Positions 24,088 through 63,238 of a stretch of 64,000 nucleotides of DNA are shown piece by piece (positions within the stretch are counted from its first letter, which is position 1; every line of letters starts with the position of its first letter). Both the position numbers and the translations under genes were made by a program. This DNA comes from Patescibacteria group bacterium (GTDB lineage: Bacteria; Patescibacteriota; Patescibacteriia; Patescibacteriales; UBA12465). Location: assembly GCA_038323715.1 (NCBI GenBank), contig JBBQHF010000003.1:22489-86488 (forward strand), given 5' to 3'. The notes below the pieces were generated by a model. That model was not told where the DNA came from, did no database searches, and saw only the letters and a list, made by a program, of their open reading frames with translations.

Positions 24088-25923
24088 TTAATTTTCCAAG
24101 ACAGCCTTAATGCGTCTAACCCCCGCGCTTGAGGATTCTTCTTTCTGGATTTTGAATTTACCTAAAACTCCAGTATTTAAGACATGGGGACCACCGCAAA
24201 TTTCCTGAGAAAAGGCTTCTTTTATATTCGGAGTACCATCTTCCTCAAGCTTGCTAGCCGTATAAACCTTAACCTTTTCCCCATATTTAGAGTCAAAGAC
24301 TCCCATTGCGCCTCTAATTTTAGCAGCCTCTAAAGGCAACTCTTCGCAGGTAACTGGTAAATTAGCTTCAATTGCGCTATTGACTAAATCTTCAACTTGT
24401 TTTATTTGCTCCGGCGCCATTTTCTCGGCCTGAGAAAAATCAAATCTTAATCTTTCGGGGGTGATATTACTTCCCCTTTGAGTTACATGATCGCCTAAAA
24501 CTTTTCTTAACGCAGCTAAGAGCAAATGAGCGGCCGTATGAAGCTTGGTTGTTTCCTCGCCCGAATCGGCCAGTCCTCCTTTGAACTTTCCTGCCGAAGC
24601 CGTGCGGGATAAGTCTTGATGTTTTTTAAATTCTTCCTCAAACGACTTAATATCAACTTCCTGGCCATTCTCTTTAGCCATTTCAATCGTCATCTCTAAG
24701 GGGTATCCATAAGATTGAAACAAATTAAAAGCCACGCTCCCAGGAATAATTCCCGTAGTGCCGTTTTCAACCGTGGTCCATTTCATAAACTCTTTTTCTC
24801 CTTGGACTAAAGTTTTACTAAATTTTTCCTCCTCCTTATCTAAATTATCTAAAATAAAATGACGATTATTTTCTAATTCGTTGTAAGTATCTTTATAAAT
24901 ATCAATCACAATCACGGCAATATCTTTAACCCACAAATTCTGTTTAATTCCCAGTTGTCTGCCGTGGCGGATAGCACGACGAATTAAACGACGTAAAACA
25001 TAGCCCTGATCAGTATTAGAAGGCGTGATGCCTTTATTATCACCAATAATAAAGGTGGCCGCTTTAATATGGTCGGCGATAATACGCATCGCCCTAGTCG
25101 TCTTCTCATCTAAACCATATTTTTGCCCGCTAAGCTCTTCTATCTTTTGAATCAAGCCGATAAACAATTCGGTTTGATAATTATCATCTAGACCATTTAA
25201 AACAGCGAGGACTCTTTCCAAACCTAAACCAGTATCAACATTTTTTTGTTTTAGTGGTTCAAATTTCCCATCAGCGTTTTTATTATATTGCAAGAAGACG
25301 TCATTCCAAATTTCAACCCATGAATCATTATCATCATTAAAGCTCTTAGGAATCTGACTAACATCTCCAGTCCAATAAAACATTTCTGAATCAGGCCCAC
25401 AAGGACCAGTTATTCCCGCTGGTCCCCACCAATTATTTTTCTTTGGTAATTTTGCAATCCGCTCCACTGGCAAATTATTGGCAACAAAAATTTCTTGCCA
25501 AATACTATAGGCTTCTTCGTCATAAGGTGCATCTTCGTCTCCCTTAAATACTGAAACCGCTAAACGATTTTTATCTAAATTCAAATAATCAACAGATGTT
25601 AAAAAATCCCAGCTAAACTGGATTGCTTCACGCTTAAAATAATTTCCCAAAGACCAATTACCCATCATTTCAAAAAAAGTGTGATGAGTTTTATCGCCAA
25701 CCTCATCTATATCTCCAGTCCTAATACATTTTTGGGCATCAACTAACCTATTTCCAGCGGGATGTTTTTCACCCAAAAGATAAGGCACGAGCGGGTGCAT
25801 ACCAGCGGTCGTAAATAGAACCGAGGGGTCATTTTCCGGAATCAAGCTCGCGCCGGAAATAATGGCATGCCCCTGTTTATTAAAAAAATCTAAATATGTT
25901 TGTCGCAGCTGATTAGCATTCAT
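24088..25923 (-). CDS. alaS: Alanyl-tRNA synthetase, short form (catalytic, tRNA-recognition and editing domains; no C-Ala domain)
   Basis: 611 aa; N-terminus LRQTYLDFFNKQGHAIISGASLIPENDPSVLFTTAGM. Editing motifs HTAAHLL and CGGPHV lie near the C-terminus. Confidence 0.92.
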   Translation of the reverse strand: MNANQLRQTYLDFFNKQGHAIISGASLIPENDPSVLFTTAGMHPLVPYLLGEKHPAGNRLVDAQKCIRTGDIDEVGDKTHHTFFEMMGNWSLGNYFKREAIQFSWDFLTSVDYLNLDKNRLAVSVFKGDEDAPYDEEAYSIWQEIFVANNLPVERIAKLPKKNNWWGPAGITGPCGPDSEMFYWTGDVSQIPKSFNDDNDSWVEIWNDVFLQYNKNADGKFEPLKQKNVDTGLGLERVLAVLNGLDDNYQTELFIGLIQKIEELSGQKYGLDEKTTRAMRIIADHIKAATFIIGDNKGITPSNTDQGYVLRRLIRRAIRHGRQLGIKQNLWVKDIAVIVIDIYKDTYNELENNRHFILDNLDKEEEKFSKTLVQGEKEFMKWTTVENGTTGIIPGSVAFNLFQSYGYPLEMTIEMAKENGQEVDIKSFEEEFKKHQDLSRTASAGKFKGGLADSGEETTKLHTAAHLLLAALRKVLGDHVTQRGSNITPERLRFDFSQAEKMAPEQIKQVEDLVNSAIEANLPVTCEELPLEAAKIRGAMGVFDSKYGEKVKVYTASKLEEDGTPNIKEAFSQEICGGPHVLNTGVLGKFKIQKEESSSAGVRRIKAVLEN

Positions 25924-43377: not shown

Positions 43378-44385
43378 CTATTTAGTAGCTAAAATGCTTC
43401 GTTTATATGAATCTAAATTATCTAAAGCAATCCCCGTGCCTTTAGCAACACAGAGCATGGCATCATCAGCCACATAAGCGGGGACCCCAGTTGTCCGAGC
43501 TATTAATTGATCCATGTTTCTAAGCAAAGAGCTGCCACCAGTAAGAACAATTCCTTTATCCATTATATCAGCCGATAGCTCTGGTGGTGTTTTTTGTAAA
43601 ACTTTTTTGGCAGCTGAGATGATTGCTTCTAGTTCATGTTGAATTGCTTCAGTCACATCATCGCTAGAAACAGTTATGCTCCGAGGCAAGCCGGTCACGA
43701 TATCACGGCCACGTACTTCCATATGAAGCTTATCTTCCATATATAAAGCCGAACCAATATTTATTTTAATTTCTTCAGCGGTTCTTTCACCAATTGCTAA
43801 ATTATATTTTTTTCTAACATATTCCAAAACCGCCGCATCAAATTTATTACCACCAACTCTAACCGAAGTTGAAGCAACGACACCGCCCAAAGAGATAACC
43901 GCCATCTCAGCAGTTCCTCCTCCGATATCAATTACCATGTGACCGGTGGCTGAGCCAATCGGAATATCAGCGCCAATCGCCGCGGCCACTGGCTCTTTAA
44001 TAATATAAGCGGCTTTAGCACCAGCAGCGATAGTCGCTTCAATTACGGCCCTTCGTTCGGTTGAGGAAATTCCGGCCGGAACGGCCACCATAACTTCTGG
44101 TCTAAATAGTCTTAATCCGCCTAAAGTTTTATTAATAAAATATCTAATCATCGCTTCCGTTGCCCGATAATCAGCAATCACGCCGTCTTTTAAAGGTTTA
44201 ACCGCCATAATAGTATCGGGCGTTCTGCCCAACATATCCTTGGCCTCATTGCCAACCGCTAAAATTTTCTTATCAGCAATAGAAACAGCGACCACACTTG
44301 GCTCATTTACAACAATCCCTCGCCGAGGCAAGTATACAAGCGTGTAGGTTGTCCCTAAATCGATGCCGATTTGTTTAATAAACAT
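43378..44385 (-). CDS. mreB: Rod-shape determining actin homologue MreB (paralog 1, detached from mreCD)
   Basis: 335 aa; IGIDLGTTYTLVY..., DIGGGTAEMAVISLGG, LTGGSSLL. Confidence 0.92.
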   Translation of the reverse strand: MFIKQIGIDLGTTYTLVYLPRRGIVVNEPSVVAVSIADKKILAVGNEAKDMLGRTPDTIMAVKPLKDGVIADYRATEAMIRYFINKTLGGLRLFRPEVMVAVPAGISSTERRAVIEATIAAGAKAAYIIKEPVAAAIGADIPIGSATGHMVIDIGGGTAEMAVISLGGVVASTSVRVGGNKFDAAVLEYVRKKYNLAIGERTAEEIKINIGSALYMEDKLHMEVRGRDIVTGLPRSITVSSDDVTEAIQHELEAIISAAKKVLQKTPPELSADIMDKGIVLTGGSSLLRNMDQLIARTTGVPAYVADDAMLCVAKGTGIALDNLDSYKRSILATK

Positions 44386-49261: not shown

Positions 49262-50302
49262 TTAATCTGAGCTAGTCGGCAAAACTACTTTAGCTAGTAA
49301 ATCTTTATTAGTTAACAGTAGTCCGGTTCCTCTCGCGACACAAGTCAAAGGATCATCAACTATTTTAACTGGGATTTTAGAAGCAGCCGAGATTGCTTTA
49401 TCTAAGCCACGAAGCAAAGCGCCACCACCAGATAAATAAAGACCACGCTCATATATATCGGAAACTAGTTCCGGAGGAGTCGTTTCTAAAATAGTTTTTA
49501 TGTTATCGATTATTTTACCAATTGTGCGACTAATAGCTTCTCTTATTTGTTTATCATTTACCATGATTGCTTTTGGCAAGCCAGTAAGCAGGTCGCGTCC
49601 GCGTACTTCCATTTCCTTCGGTTCGTCAAGCGGAACAGCCGAGCCAATTCCAATTTTAATACCTTCAGCTAATTGTTCGCCAATAAGAATATTAAATTCT
49701 TCTCTAATATAGTCAATTATATTACTATCAAATTCATTTCCGGCGGCCTTAAGGGATTTCCAGGTAACCACGCCCCCTAAAGAAATAACGGCAATTTCGG
49801 TAGTGCCGCCACCGATATCAACTATCATCGTAGCGGTCGCGTCAATCACTGGCAATCTAGCGCCAATAGCGGCGGCCATCGCCTCTTCAATCAAATAAAC
49901 CTTACGCGCGCCTGCTGATTTAGCCGCATCTTCAACCGCTTTTTTTTCTACTTCGGTTAAATCAAGCGGAATACCAATCACGACGCGAGGACGAGATATT
50001 AAAGCAAAATTATCATTATGAACTTTACCAATAAAATATTTAAGCATTTTTTCAGTTACTTCAAAATCAGAAATAACGCCATCAACCAAAGGCTTAATCG
50101 CTTCAATATGTCCTGGGGTTTTACCAACCATTTTTTTAGCCGCATCTCCGACTTCTAAAATTTCATTGGTTCTTTTATTAATCGCCACGACACTAGGTTC
50201 ATTAATCACCAAGCCTTTATCATTAAGATAAACCAGGGTATTTCTAGTACCTAAATCTATCCCTAAATCATGGCTGAATCTTCCGAGAAAGTTATTAAAC
50301 AT
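49262..50302 (-). CDS. mreB: Rod-shape determining actin homologue MreB (paralog 2, in mreBCD)
   Basis: MFNNFLGRFSHDLGIDLGTRNTLVY... from the ATG at 50302 (the track start is TTG); DIGGGTTEIAVISLGG. Confidence 0.92.
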   Translation of the reverse strand: MFNNFLGRFSHDLGIDLGTRNTLVYLNDKGLVINEPSVVAINKRTNEILEVGDAAKKMVGKTPGHIEAIKPLVDGVISDFEVTEKMLKYFIGKVHNDNFALISRPRVVIGIPLDLTEVEKKAVEDAAKSAGARKVYLIEEAMAAAIGARLPVIDATATMIVDIGGGTTEIAVISLGGVVTWKSLKAAGNEFDSNIIDYIREEFNILIGEQLAEGIKIGIGSAVPLDEPKEMEVRGRDLLTGLPKAIMVNDKQIREAISRTIGKIIDNIKTILETTPPELVSDIYERGLYLSGGGALLRGLDKAISAASKIPVKIVDDPLTCVARGTGLLLTNKDLLAKVVLPTSSD

Positions 50303-50348
50303 AAAACTAATTTTTAAAATTAACAAACTAACAATTTTCCGACTAATC

Positions 50349-60190: not shown

Positions 60191-60328
60191 TTAAAAACGG
60201 TAATAACTATGGTACTTTTAGTGCTTTTTTTAGCTAAATATTGCCTTTTCTTATCTTTTATGATAAACATAGATGTTAATCTAAATTAACACTAGTTATT
60301 TAAAAATTGAATTATTAAACAATTAAAA

Positions 60329-60336
60329 TAAGGAGG
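60329..60336 (+). promoter_or_regulatory. Strong Shine-Dalgarno (TAAGGAGG) of the fusion gene
   Basis: taaggagg lies 8 nt upstream of the ATG at 60345. It is the best SD noticed in the window. Confidence 0.7.
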
Positions 60337-60344
60337 ATTATACC

Positions 60345-62348
60345 ATGAAAACAAAAACATCATTTCCCGTTGAAATTGTTTGTGCTTCATTAAATTTTCA
60401 CAAATTAGATACTGAAGCCTTATCAATGCTGAAAACTGCCAGTTTCTCTGACGCCGCCAACATTAAAGAAAAATTCAAGCGCAAACTTGGATTTAACGTT
60501 AAACAAATGGCTATCATCCAGAAATGTAATGCGGTGATGATTATTTTCACTCATACCGAAAACATTTCTGAAGATTATGCGCATCACTGTGTTCTAGACA
60601 CTTGGAGTAAGCTCTCTAATCATGGAATTGTGGAATTTATTAATAAAATCCAATTTTTCCATAATGAACTAGCGATTCGCTACATTGGCGAAACCGCTCT
60701 TGGTCTTCACAGCGTCACACTTGGCGACTCACAAGTATTTTCTCAAGTAAACGACGCTATTAAAATTGAAAGTCGCCAAACTAAGAACGAGCCAATTTTT
60801 ACCATCCTTTCCAACTGGCTTCAGGAATTAGCCGAAGAAGTTAAAGAGAAGACAATTTTGTTTTCTGGAAATATTTCAATTGAAAGGATTGCGGTTAATC
60901 AACTCGTTGGCCGAGTTAACCCGGGTGTAAATATTCTTGTTGTTGGTGCCGGACAATCAGGTTCCTTAATTACCAAAATTTTGGTTGAAGAATACAAATA
61001 CAAAGTTTGGATAACCAACCGAAATCAAGAAAAAATTGAGGAAATTACCAGCAAAAAACCCAAGGTTAATGCCATCAAAATTGATGACTGGGATTCTTTG
61101 AAAAATATCCAGGCCGTTTTTTGGGCATTAGAACACAACAAGGAAACCGTCGCCCTGTTTTCTGAACTAGAAACTAAATTTGGCGACAATGTTCCCTTCC
61201 TCTTTGATTTATCAACCCCGTCGATGGCAAAAAATGGAGATTGGACTATTCTTGATATTCAAGATTTTTCCAAAGAAGCCCATAAAACAAAAACGGAAAG
61301 AGCGAGCGCTGTCAATCAAACCCGTCAAATTTTAGATAAAAATATTATCTTTTTCTTGACGAAAATGAAAACAGCGATTGGTAAAATCAGCGTTGATAAT
61401 CAAAAAACTTGCGCCTTATCACGCCTGCCAGCAAGCATGTTGGATACTATCAAAATCAGGAGCGAAGCTTTCAACGCCGTAAGAGCCTACTTGTTAAACG
61501 ATGGGTTTGATGAAATTAACACCCCTTATATCGTTGGTGTTTCCACTGATCCACCAAAAGTAGATAAGGGCGGGGCGATTGAAGTTTTGTGGCCAGGAGG
61601 AGAAAGAGCCTTCTTACGTCAAAGCAACCAATTGTACAAACAAATGGTAATTGCTTCCGGGATGAAAAAAATCTTTGAGATTGGACCATTCTGGCGGGCG
61701 GAAACAGAAAATAGCTTCAGGCATCTGCAAGAAACAATCGGTCTTGATGTTGAGATTGCTAATCCTAAAAATCTCAATACCATCATCGATTTAGCCTACG
61801 CTGTCGTCTGTAACAGCTACCAAAAATTGAAAGACCTGTCCTTGCCAGTCGCTGAACTTAATTTGTCCGCAGATAATCCCATTATCATTTCCTACAAAGA
61901 AGCCGTTGAGATGTTAAACACCAACGGTTTTGCCCATCAATACGGGGTTGACTTGGGAGTTGTCGGTGAGGCAAAGCTCGGCGAAATTATTAAAAAGAAA
62001 AAAGGCAGCGATATCTTTGTCATTAACAACTATCCCACTAATATCAAAAAGTTTTATACTAAACAAAAAGGTTTGTATTTAACTGAAACTTTTGACATTA
62101 TTATGTGCGGCTGGGAATTGGTTAGCGGCGCTATCAGGGAAAACAGCCGAAAAAAAATTGAATATTCAATGAAGCTTTCCGGCATTAACCCCGCTGATTA
62201 CTCTTTCTATCTTTCTATTATTGATGATTCAGTAGAACACGGAGGCTTTGGCATGGGACTTGACCGTCTCATTGCTAAGTTCCTGGATATTGAAGTCATT
62301 GATAATTGTGTTCCGTTCCCAAGAACTTTTGAAAAATTAATTCCTTAA
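60345..62348 (+). CDS. Fusion protein: glutamyl-tRNA reductase (HemA)-like module (aa 1-~345) plus class IIb AspRS-like catalytic core without anticodon-binding domain (aa ~360-667)
   Basis: N-terminal part: IIQK-C-N-AVM (compare STCNRxE), GETALGLHSVTLGDSQVFSQV (compare ASGLDSLVLGEPQILGQV), ILVVGAGQSGSLITKIL...ITNRNQEK (compare LLVGAGETIEL...ANRTRERA), and FLFDLSTP (compare LLVDIAVPRD). C-terminal part: FLRQSNQLYKQ, motif 2 GPFWRAETENSFRHLQE, motif 3 EHGGFGMGLDRLIAKFL..VPFPR. This closely parallels archaeal AspRS (AYLAQSPQLYKQ, PIFRAEEHNTTRHLNE, PHGGFGLGAERLI..LFPR). Confidence 0.8.
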   Translation: MKTKTSFPVEIVCASLNFHKLDTEALSMLKTASFSDAANIKEKFKRKLGFNVKQMAIIQKCNAVMIIFTHTENISEDYAHHCVLDTWSKLSNHGIVEFINKIQFFHNELAIRYIGETALGLHSVTLGDSQVFSQVNDAIKIESRQTKNEPIFTILSNWLQELAEEVKEKTILFSGNISIERIAVNQLVGRVNPGVNILVVGAGQSGSLITKILVEEYKYKVWITNRNQEKIEEITSKKPKVNAIKIDDWDSLKNIQAVFWALEHNKETVALFSELETKFGDNVPFLFDLSTPSMAKNGDWTILDIQDFSKEAHKTKTERASAVNQTRQILDKNIIFFLTKMKTAIGKISVDNQKTCALSRLPASMLDTIKIRSEAFNAVRAYLLNDGFDEINTPYIVGVSTDPPKVDKGGAIEVLWPGGERAFLRQSNQLYKQMVIASGMKKIFEIGPFWRAETENSFRHLQETIGLDVEIANPKNLNTIIDLAYAVVCNSYQKLKDLSLPVAELNLSADNPIIISYKEAVEMLNTNGFAHQYGVDLGVVGEAKLGEIIKKKKGSDIFVINNYPTNIKKFYTKQKGLYLTETFDIIMCGWELVSGAIRENSRKKIEYSMKLSGINPADYSFYLSIIDDSVEHGGFGMGLDRLIAKFLDIEVIDNCVPFPRTFEKLIP

Positions 62349-62383: not shown

Positions 62384-62415
62384 AAAAAGGAGGCCAAACA
62401 TCAGCCTCCTTTTTT
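62384..62415. terminator. Bidirectional terminator after the fusion gene
   Basis: aaaaaggaggc/caaacatca/gcctccttttt followed by t; GC core 62389-62394/62404-62409. Confidence 0.8.
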
Positions 62416-62434: not shown

Positions 62435-63238
62435 CTAAACCTTTAATTCTAAACCATCAACCGCGAAATCAAAATTTAAATCGGGATAATCTTTTTTAGC
62501 AGTTTTAAAATTATTTCCAAACAACCTTAATTCAACTTCTTCCAAATGAGTAAAAATTATTTTTTTCGGAGTATTTGCTCTCAGCCTGTCAACCAAATCA
62601 ACAAATTTTATTTCAGTCTTATGATCAAAAAACATGCCGCATTCATGAATCAGTAAATCAAGATTTCTAACTTTAGCAAAAGAATTGAATTCTAAAGTAT
62701 CGCAAGGAGCATAAAGGACTCGTTTTTGTTTTTCCTGAATTAAATAGGCATAATGATCAGAATTTTTGCCATTATAACCGATGGCCTGAATAACGATATT
62801 CCCTAATTTAATATTATCCCCATCTTCTATTAAATGTAATTTAGCGGTCTTTTGAAAATTAATAAAATAATCAATCACCGGAAATTTAATTTTTAAATCG
62901 GCAAAAACTCTTTTGGGAATATAAAGATTAATCACTTTATCAGCTTTATTCGCTCTAAAATTATATCCAGACTCTAAGATTACTCGCAAACCAAAAGTGT
63001 GGTCAGGGTGCCAATGAGTTATAAAAAGATTATCAACCTGTTTTATTTTATGACGGTTCAAAGAGTCGGCAATATCTTCTCCACAATCAATTAAGGTGTG
63101 GTTGTCTTTAATAAAAAAGGAGGAATTATTTCTTTTAAATTCACCACCCTTAAGCCTTCCCTGTTTACAAACCGGGCAATCACAGAAAGGACGAGGAACA
63201 GTCATCGCGCCGCCAGAACCTAAAATTTTTAACTTCAT
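62435..63238 (-). CDS. MBL-fold metallo-hydrolase, PhnP/PqqB-like
   Basis: 267 aa; an N-terminal CDCPVC Zn motif and THWHPDH (HxHxDH). Confidence 0.8.
   Translation of the reverse strand: MKLKILGSGGAMTVPRPFCDCPVCKQGRLKGGEFKRNNSSFFIKDNHTLIDCGEDIADSLNRHKIKQVDNLFITHWHPDHTFGLRVILESGYNFRANKADKVINLYIPKRVFADLKIKFPVIDYFINFQKTAKLHLIEDGDNIKLGNIVIQAIGYNGKNSDHYAYLIQEKQKRVLYAPCDTLEFNSFAKVRNLDLLIHECGMFFDHKTEIKFVDLVDRLRANTPKKIIFTHLEEVELRLFGNNFKTAKKDYPDLNFDFAVDGLELKV

Follow-up and report, generated by a model that had tools for sequence, protein, structure and literature searches.

A glutamyl-tRNA reductase-like module fused to an aspartyl-tRNA synthetase-like catalytic core in Patescibacteria: a putative aspartate-activating and aspartate-reducing enzyme

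No enzyme other than glutamyl-tRNA reductase (GluTR; HemA, EC 1.2.1.70) is known to reduce an aminoacyl-tRNA, and GluTR has been regarded as specific to tetrapyrrole synthesis. There are also fusions in which one polypeptide makes and diverts an aminoacyl-tRNA: LysX (LysRS-MprF), ErdS (AspRS-DUF2156) and AspRS-GatC keep a full aminoacyl-tRNA synthetase (aaRS) with its anticodon domain, and their partners are transferases. Here we describe a gene in a stretch of 64,000 nucleotides from a Patescibacteria group bacterium (assembly GCA_038323715.1, contig JBBQHF010000003.1, positions 22,489–86,488 of the forward strand; hereafter the window), the single product of which joins a GluTR-like reductase to a catalytic core of the aspartyl-tRNA synthetase (AspRS) type (hereafter the fusion). 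To judge from sequence comparison, it probably turns activated aspartate into an amino-aldehyde. Full-text literature searches found no description of this architecture, which, given their incomplete coverage, is absence of evidence only. The gene and its parts are as follows.

60345–62348 (+): whole fusion gene, 667 aa; GluTR-like reductase plus AspRS-like catalytic core
60330–60336 (+): Shine-Dalgarno sequence AAGGAGG, 8 nt 5' of the ATG; AGGAGG is kept in relatives
60369–60854 (+): GluTR N-terminal (catalytic) domain, aa 9–170; Pfam GlutR_N, GluTR fold
60522–60533 (+): K60-C61-N62-A63 in place of canonical T-C-N-R; codon tgt of the nucleophile Cys61 at 60525–60527
60927–61220 (+): NADPH-binding Rossmann domain, aa 195–292; Pfam Shikimate_DH
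60945–60962 (+): GAGQSG (G201-x-G203-x-x-G206) inside the Rossmann domain, which also has N225-R226
61257–61415 (+): spine helix, aa 305–357, linking reductase to core; DSSP on AlphaFold models, aligns with the spine helix of 1gpj
61434–62327 (+): class IIb aaRS catalytic core, aa 364–661; Pfam tRNA-synt_2 and alignment to archaeal AspRS
within the core (+): remodelled flipping loop TDPPKVDKGG, aa 401–410
within the core (+): QSNQLYKQ, aa 426–433
61689–61754 (+): motif 2, aa 449–470; FWRAE from 61689
within the core (+): R598
62238–62270 (+): motif 3, aa 632–642; GGFGMGLDRL at 62241–62270

The open reading frame (ORF) lies where a first-pass annotation, made from the letters alone, had placed it. 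The motifs quoted there are all in position except for the start of motif 3, which is at 62241 instead of 62244, i.e. one codon off; PFPR is found close to the C-terminus. Both modules are genuine by Pfam, NCBIfam and PDB fold matches. The Pfam families GlutR_N (PF05201; aa 25–170, 43.8 bits against a gathering cut-off of 27), the Shikimate_DH-type NADP domain (PF01488; aa 195–292, 43.4 against 24.3 bits) and tRNA-synt_2 (aa 364–661, E 5.6e-50) are present, while neither the OB anticodon-binding domain (tRNA_anti-codon, PF01336) nor the GlutR_dimer domain has a Pfam match in the protein. Positions 2–335 of the 416 in the NCBIfam hemA model correspond to aa 12–343, and positions 135–438 of the 438 in the archaeal-type AspRS model to aa 367–667. 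All matching NCBIfam families score under their curated cut-offs, among them (i) the hemA equivalog TIGR01035 (76.5 bits, cut-off 209.55); (ii) the AspRS equivalogs NF003483 (227.4, cut-off 353) and TIGR00458 (182.3, cut-off 368.4); and (iii) the equivalogs of AsnA, NF005052 (99.4, cut-off 368) and NF005054 (85.9, cut-off 309). No curated NCBIfam family therefore covers the fusion. It is not a HemA, since the signature motif, dimerisation domain, curated cut-off and genomic context all fail, and it is not an AspRS, since it has no OB domain and scores under the cut-off.

Predicted structures agree with these domain assignments. The full-length AlphaFold model (predicted local distance difference test, pLDDT, 86; predicted template-modelling score, pTM, 0.67) has the archaeal AspRS structures 3nel, 1b8a and 1wyd as its best PDB matches (E ∼1e-25; root-mean-square deviation, rmsd, 2.1–2.7 Å over ∼313 columns). 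For a separate model of aa 1–358 (pLDDT 90), the seven best PDB matches are all GluTR, with a template-modelling (TM) score of 0.74 and an rmsd of 3.7 Å over 350 columns to Methanopyrus kandleri GluTR (1gpj); generic Rossmann proteins rank after GluTR with E > 1e-5, at least 10 orders of magnitude weaker. Together with the GlutR_N score above cut-off, this bears out the view that aa 1–345 are GluTR-like and more than a generic Rossmann protein. DSSP assigns helices H305–321 and H323–357 in one model and H317–356 in the other, so, in the models, the N-terminal half lacks no part of GluTR until the spine helix (H305–357) ends. The aaRS core starts at the end of that helix, where the dimerisation domain of GluTR would start, and its sequence aligns end to end with archaeal AspRS (residues 130–429 of 1wyd and 133–438 of 3nel). 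The first-pass annotation was right that the reductase sits in the place of the OB domain; it omitted that, equally, the aaRS core sits in the place of the GluTR dimerisation domain. Structurally, the most economical view is that an aaRS dimer has taken the place of the dimerisation domain in a GluTR, because class II aaRS cores are obligate dimers.

The reductase half resembles GluTR (1gpj, 4n7r) in fold over aa 1–357 (catalytic N-domain, NADPH domain and spine helix), in the nucleophile Cys-Asn, in the S/G/Q of GL-x-S...LG-x-x-Q...Q, in GxGxxG and in N-R, and the thioester and hydride chemistry is presumably the same. It differs from GluTR, which has canonical T-C-N-R-x-E, E in place of D128, no R181, a GlutR_dimer domain and no aaRS core. 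The pockets were compared between 23 clade members and 19 canonical HemA sequences. Residues kept from HemA are the Cys-Asn, the S/G/Q of the substrate-binding segment, T170, S178, GxGxxG, N225-R226, D288, P292 and R319. By contrast, the Thr before the Cys, invariant in the 19 HemA, is Lys in 23 of 23 clade members; the Arg after C-N, likewise invariant in HemA, is A, C or S in all 23; and E→D128 and Ser→R181 occur in every clade member compared. The window protein reads K-C-N-A-V-M against canonical T-C-N-R-x-E, so that only C-N is left of the motif, as first noticed from the sequence. The His equivalent to H84 of 1gpj is Tyr or Phe in the window's subfamily and is kept as His in distant members. 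The carboxylate-binding Arg may have been relocated and the pocket shortened. The glutamate pocket of GluTR appears to be remodelled with conserved charge across the whole clade, which fits a shorter acidic acyl group, i.e. aspartyl for glutamyl; the early suggestion that a thioester-forming reductase has been retargeted to a different acyl group is, in general terms, consistent with all data. Neither hemL nor other tetrapyrrole genes were found among the window genes scanned, as the first-pass annotation had held, or in the flanks of ∼27 related loci.

The second half scores highest as archaeal-type AspRS (227 bits in NCBIfam), followed by AsnRS (132), AsnA (99) and bacterial AspRS (77). Pfam, NCBIfam, alignment and structure matches all agree with its initial description as closest to archaeal/eukaryal AspRS without the OB domain. 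With the AspRS of Thermococcus kodakarensis (3nel/1b8a) and Sulfurisphaera tokodaii (1wyd) it has in common a complete catalytic domain (30–33% identical), motifs 1–3 and the Asp-binding residues; those enzymes have an OB-fold domain and hinge, whereas the fusion is without both, and its flipping loop is 5 residues longer (TDPPKVDKGG against TEGG), an insertion that is conserved. Position for position, the QSxQxxK segment, motif 2, the Arg of G-x-x-R-E and motif 3 are kept relative to T. kodakarensis AspRS. S190, Q192 and K195 of 3nel, a structure solved with Asp, correspond to S427, Q429 and K432 of the fusion, and its flipping-loop Glu to D402. The residues with which AspRS recognises Asp are kept in the core. 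What sets the core apart is the flipping-loop insertion and not the QSNQ variant, since QSNQ is found in undoubted archaeal-type AspRS from Clostridia, Saccharibacteria, Dojkabacteria and Parachlamydiales as well. Some distant fusions (P0130, P0137 and P0140) are without the Asp-binding Lys, which hints at a shift of substrate.

Both modules look catalytically intact, because their catalytic residues are either invariant in the family or common to canonical HemA. Among 92 full-length members, the invariant residues of the reductase half are K60-C61-N62, S123, G127, D128, Q130, V131, Q134, S178, E180, R181, and G201 and G203 of GxGxxG, a motif the glycines of which are invariant; Cys61, the conservation of which had been a concern from the outset, is present in 92 of 92. 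In the core they are R425-Q426-S427, Q429, Y431-K432-Q433, W450-R451, H460, E463, D468, E470, R598, H632, G634, D640-R641 and F658-P659-R660, and the motif 2 residues E453 and R459 are also listed as invariant.

The fusion architecture recurs in 103 clusters (word-indexed search, clusters at 90% identity) of 640–676 aa, down to 33% identity, the database names of which are generic (e.g. "amino acid--tRNA ligase-related protein" and "aspartate-tRNA ligase"). A scan of species-representative genomes found the full fusion at 22 loci, nearly all of them labelled Patescibacteria (Falkow-, Kaiser-, Azam-, Moranii- and Saccharibacteria, Parcubacteria); the few labelled otherwise appear to be mis-binned. 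A frameshift or chimeric assembly join is excluded, because the same architecture, at 640–695 aa, is found in ∼103 independent clusters and at 22 loci in genomes. When a profile built from the reductase half was run against 1.84 billion representatives, 64 proteins at E ≤ 1e-30 ranked ahead of ordinary HemA. This set includes (i) more distant fusions of 617–695 aa, one on a contig of 62% GC (locus L047; related loci are numbered with L hereafter) and one on a human-gut contig of 22% GC (L049); (ii) stand-alone reductases of 328–385 aa; and (iii) a variant whose reductase is joined to, or lies next to, a transmembrane protein with no recognised fold (P0118, L044). At L045 the two halves are genuinely split: a gene for a 328-aa reductase is followed by a separate gene that begins with the core N-terminus, and therefore the two modules work together.

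In other clades, the neighbouring genes connect the fusion to aspS and to an aldehyde-reducing enzyme. A canonical aspS lies at most two genes from the fusion in 15 of 27 non-redundant loci, where the fusion is only 30–48% identical to the window protein. The adjacent AspRS has an OB domain and a bacterial-type core without the GAD insertion (454–478 aa) and scores 585–710 bits with NF001750, against a cut-off of 443. Four arrangements occur: aspS, a short-chain dehydrogenase/reductase (SDR) and the fusion at 10 loci; aspS, an iron-containing alcohol dehydrogenase (Fe-ADH) and the fusion at L046; aspS, a GNAT gene and the fusion at L003; and the fusion followed by aspS at L023, L025 and L048. 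In 11 loci, then, an alcohol dehydrogenase lies between aspS and the fusion, and the genes abut or overlap. The SDR comes closest to YdfG (NADP-dependent 3-hydroxy-acid / malonic-semialdehyde reductase; 233 bits, under cut-off); the Fe-ADH of L046, non-homologous to it, is nearest to sulfoacetaldehyde, lactaldehyde and 4-hydroxybutyrate reductases. Two unrelated aldehyde-reducing enzymes at the same operon position point to an aldehyde product, and they argue that it is a small polar one. The ordinary AspRS of Paceibacterota gives at least 8000 matches at E ≤ 1e-60, the best 120 of which are all GAD-less. Because GAD-less AspRS is the ordinary AspRS of the phylum and the fusion is limited to ∼100 clusters, the AspRS gene next door is a housekeeping gene and the fusion, being rare, looks accessory. 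For the same reason, an extra self-resistance copy of AspRS, as in clusters for aaRS inhibitors, is not supported as an explanation of the adjacent gene.

These findings indicate two apparently intact active sites, one GluTR-type and one AspRS-type, which fusion, fission and the operons tie to each other as well as to aspS and an aldehyde reductase. The reading we favour, tentatively, is a bifunctional aspartate-activating and aspartate-reducing enzyme that belongs to a clade paralogous to GluTR and has its dimerisation domain replaced by an AspRS-type core. Aspartate as substrate, the use of tRNA, activation at the α-carboxyl and the nature of the product are all putative. The core would bind L-Asp and ATP and form aspartyl-adenylate, and the aspartyl group would be carried on the 3' end of tRNA(Asp), charged by the fused core itself or, in most lineages, by the neighbouring housekeeping AspRS. 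The GluTR-like domain would then take the aspartyl group onto Cys61 as a thioester, which NADPH bound to the Rossmann domain would reduce to aspartate 1-semialdehyde (3-amino-4-oxobutanoate). Where a partner SDR or Fe-ADH is encoded, it would reduce the aldehyde to an amino-alcohol acid.

Three considerations favour tRNA(Asp) as the carrier: the reaction is then the exact analogue of that of GluTR; the linkage to aspS is otherwise unexplained; and a helix of ∼50 residues separates the two active sites. In GluTR (1gpj), the spine helix puts the catalytic domain far from the dimerisation end. By this argument from helix length on a predicted model, a mobile carrier such as the 3' end of tRNA would fit better than direct attack of Cys61 on the adenylate. 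We also regard it as possible, with considerable doubt, that the fusion is the first aminoacyl-tRNA reductase besides GluTR and, together with AspRS and an aldehyde reductase, forms a C4 counterpart of the C5 pathway, in which Asp-tRNA(Asp) would be withdrawn from translation. Such a pathway would yield a small amino-aldehyde or amino-alcohol acid (e.g. 3-amino-4-hydroxybutanoate) in Patescibacteria. More speculatively, the intact AspRS-like core might then act on the reduced product.

Several observations weigh against aspartyl-tRNA reduction. The core has no anticodon-binding domain, and the known aaRS paralogues without one (archaeal AsnA, EpmA, HisZ and the amino acid:carrier-protein ligases) mostly do not charge tRNA. 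The motif 2 loop that reads the acceptor end in AspRS (aa 454–456) is variable within the family. A supply of Asp-tRNA from the neighbouring AspRS would leave no explanation for a second, catalytically intact core. The window's own clade has neither aspS nor a dehydrogenase adjacent to the fusion, and tblastn found neither anywhere in the 64 kb window. A dedicated tRNA gene beside the fusion was also considered and rejected: the window contains no tRNA genes, and an upstream tRNA-Glu occurs only at L006 and L008. Finally, we know of no metabolic role for aspartate 1-semialdehyde.

A serious rival, although we think it rather unlikely, is a route without tRNA that resembles carboxylic acid reductases (CARs): the OB-less core would make aspartyl-AMP, the acyl group would pass to Cys61 directly or with channelling of the adenylate, and NADPH would reduce it. 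In one version, the β-carboxyl would be activated as in AsnA, giving aspartate 4-semialdehyde and then, via a dehydrogenase, homoserine, which would bypass aspartokinase and Asd. The lack of an anticodon-binding domain in Pfam suits this route, as do a weaker but real similarity to the archaeal-type AsnA models (99 bits), the invariant K60 beside the nucleophile, which could bind the adenylate phosphate, and the conserved 5-residue insertion in the flipping loop over the active site, also found in a stand-alone OB-less core at L001. Partner dehydrogenases of the semialdehyde-reductase type would suit the step from aspartate 4-semialdehyde to homoserine, and a precedent exists in the class II SerRS-like amino acid:carrier-protein ligases, which load thiols. 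The same ∼50-residue spine helix, however, lies between the sites, the persistent linkage to housekeeping aspS is not explained, and no dap, thr or met genes were seen adjoining the fusion in the flanks of the loci. Moreover, the core is much nearer to true AspRS than to AsnA and has kept the Lys and Arg by which AspRS binds the side chain. Archaeal-type AsnA (AS-AR; 3p8t, 1nnh), which adenylates aspartate without tRNA, has an OB-less class IIb core like that of the fusion but no reductase partner, and is far more distant than AspRS (PDB E 1e-9 to 9e-12 against 1e-43).

Alternatively, the reductase might use Asp-tRNA from the neighbouring AspRS while the fused core charges nothing and serves as a dimer or tRNA-docking scaffold, or for a second adenylation (e.g. 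of the reduced product). We consider this improbable. The abutting genes of the operon aspS–dehydrogenase–fusion would suit it, as would a core in the position of the GluTR dimerisation domain, given that class II cores are established to be obligate dimers. Against it, all ATP- and Asp-binding residues of the core are invariant, which is unexpected for a mere scaffold, and in the window's clade no aspS adjoins the fusion. Some distant fusions that have lost the Asp-binding Lys also have no adjacent aspS, which suggests that the specificity of the core itself matters. The proposal in the first-pass annotation that the fusion is the organism's AspRS, with a GluTR scaffold as substitute tRNA-binding domain, is very improbable and is refuted for most of the family: although the 64 kb window has no canonical aspS, annotation pipelines label relatives 'aspartate-tRNA ligase' and hisS at L004 lies two genes from the fusion (a spacing that hisS and aspS have in many bacteria), a canonical OB-bearing aspS adjoins the fusion in 15 loci (so that the fusion as sole AspRS is rejected for these lineages), the fusion is rare (∼100 clusters against at least 8000 matches for ordinary AspRS) and looks accessory and not essential, and an invariant Cys61 and NADPH site would be needless in a pure tRNA-binding domain.

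Compared with other described systems, the fusion shares with LysX, ErdS and AspRS-GatC the logic of one polypeptide that would make and divert an aminoacyl-tRNA, its partner being a reductase; LysX and AspRS-GatC give partial hidden Markov model (HMM) matches to the fusion core only. CARs, Lys2, the terminal R domains of nonribosomal peptide synthetases (NRPSs), Asd, ProA and ArgC perform the same chemistry, i.e. carboxyl activation, thioester formation and NAD(P)H-dependent reduction to an aldehyde. However, their folds are unrelated, with ANL adenylation, carrier and SDR-type R domains in the CAR/NRPS type or GAPDH-like enzymes that act on acyl-phosphates, and ANL adenylation, carrier, SDR-type R and GAPDH-like domains have no Pfam match in the fusion. 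By analogy, the fusion would work most like GluTR, and its design principle is most like that of LysX/ErdS-type fusions. An anti-phage defence system was also considered and was rejected, as PADLOC models gave no match for the fusion or its neighbours.

The following features surround the gene in the window.

60241–60269 (+): promoter-like site by conservation, TTGCCT (60241–60246), 17 nt spacer, TG-n-TAAACA (60261–60269)
60274–60291 (+): perfect palindrome TGTTAA-N6-TTAACA, between the promoter-like site and the Shine-Dalgarno sequence
62384–62414 (no strand assigned): hairpin GGAGGC...GCCTCC with A5 and T6 flanks; bidirectional terminator, listed on the − strand in the scan
62435–63238 (−): metallo-beta-lactamase (MBL)-fold hydrolase, 267 aa, convergent; Pfam Lactamase_B_2

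In the window's clade (the window, L004/L017, L005–L008 and L016), the fusion stands alone between a promoter-like region and a bidirectional terminator. The description of the gene as monocistronic and without partners holds for this clade and fails in other clades, which have the tight operon of aspS, alcohol dehydrogenase and fusion; the terminator ascribed to it was also found, as the hairpin with A-run and T-run flanks. The promoter-like positions are conserved upstream in an alignment of five related loci, with the pattern TTGCMT, 17 nt, TGnTAAAnA common to the window, L005, L006, L008 and L016. This site may act as a promoter; the consensus scan did not list this pair. The palindrome, kept as TGTTAAGAT-AATTAAC in L005, L006 and L008, is a candidate operator or hairpin of the 5' untranslated region. 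No Rfam family matches the leader of the gene, and a T-box or riboswitch there was rejected on this ground. The terminator is common to the fusion and the convergent MBL-fold gene, the NCBIfam matches of which are weak (RNase Z / PhnP-like). This gene adjoins the fusion in the window, L004/L017, L005, L006, L007, L008 and L016, in this clade only; a functional link is unproven. The tRNA-Glu genes of L006 (9697–9769, anticodon UUC) and L008 (9709–9781, CUC) share the strand of the fusion and precede it by ∼230–300 bp, each followed by its own terminator hairpin. Curious as they are given the GluTR ancestry, they occur in two close relatives only, and we treat them as synteny and not as evidence.

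Elsewhere in the window, an AlaRS gene (24088–25923, −) encodes only 611 aa (tRNA-synt_2c and tRNA_SAD), far shorter than the usual bacterial enzyme. Two MreB paralogues (43378–44385 and 49262–50326, −) lie within 6 kb of each other; encoded between and around them are several GT4 glycosyltransferases, sugar-nucleotide epimerases/dehydratases and a subtilase with FG-GAP repeats.

Some related loci show further variants of the gene and its modules. At L021 (7639–9647; L022 has the same sequence), a one-base frame break at ∼aa 383 divides the fusion gene into ORFs of 383 and 274 aa, which could reflect a pseudogene, a sequencing error or a programmed frameshift. At L044 (1802–3758) and in P0118, a sister group of KCN-type reductases without an aaRS core is joined to or overlapped by a ∼300-aa protein that combines a transmembrane segment with a C-terminal domain; at L044, where the reductase stands alone, the 299-aa partner has no Pfam, PADLOC or PDB match. 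Several further, as yet unexplored, partners of the KCN-type reductase module have been identified in this way. The stand-alone OB-less AspRS-like core of L001 (4527–5501, −; 324 aa, 36% identical to the fused core), which carries the TDP insertion in its flipping loop, lies 2.3 kb upstream of the operon of aspS, SDR and fusion, beside genes for a GT2 glycosyltransferase and an unknown protein; the same pair of genes also adjoins the fusion in L026.

The AspRS genes met in this survey are themselves diverse. The ordinary Paceibacterota AspRS is a bacterial-type enzyme of 454–480 aa, cleanly GAD-less, with thousands of clusters and an HMM match in two stretches (e.g. L001:7856–9250, L046:4839–6203 and L048:9964–11346). 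Archaeal-type AspRS with a C-terminal extension of ∼170 aa occurs at L030 (9641–11437) and L035 (847–2646), in metagenome-assembled genomes of Saccharibacteria and Parachlamydiales, and similar ∼600-aa proteins with such an extension occur in Dojkabacteria; at L030, a second class IIb synthetase of 430 aa follows the AspRS gene. An Amidohydro_2 protein follows the cluster in two distant lineages (L001 and L048). Near the distant fusions of L048 (4360–6981) and L050 (8818–10657) are APH/choline-kinase-like kinases, a GT2 glycosyltransferase, a nucleotidyltransferase and a radical-SAM protein, which might process an amino-alcohol product further, if that is the product.

In brief, a conserved sister clade of GluTR has an intact nucleophile and NADPH site, a rebuilt pocket and a fused AspRS core, and is linked to aspS and aldehyde reductases. 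Its hosts have a minimal metabolism, and an accessory pathway as large as this can be expected to serve a particular purpose there. If it does form an amino-aldehyde, the fusion would have just one precedent of this kind, the enzyme with which haem synthesis begins. A tRNA-dependent reaction would be the second known case of reduction that depends on aminoacyl-tRNA and would add to the roles of aminoacyl-tRNA beyond translation; without tRNA, this would be the first class II aaRS adenylation core coupled to a thioester reductase. The fusion would thus extend aminoacyl-tRNA-dependent (or aaRS-coupled) reduction beyond haem synthesis.

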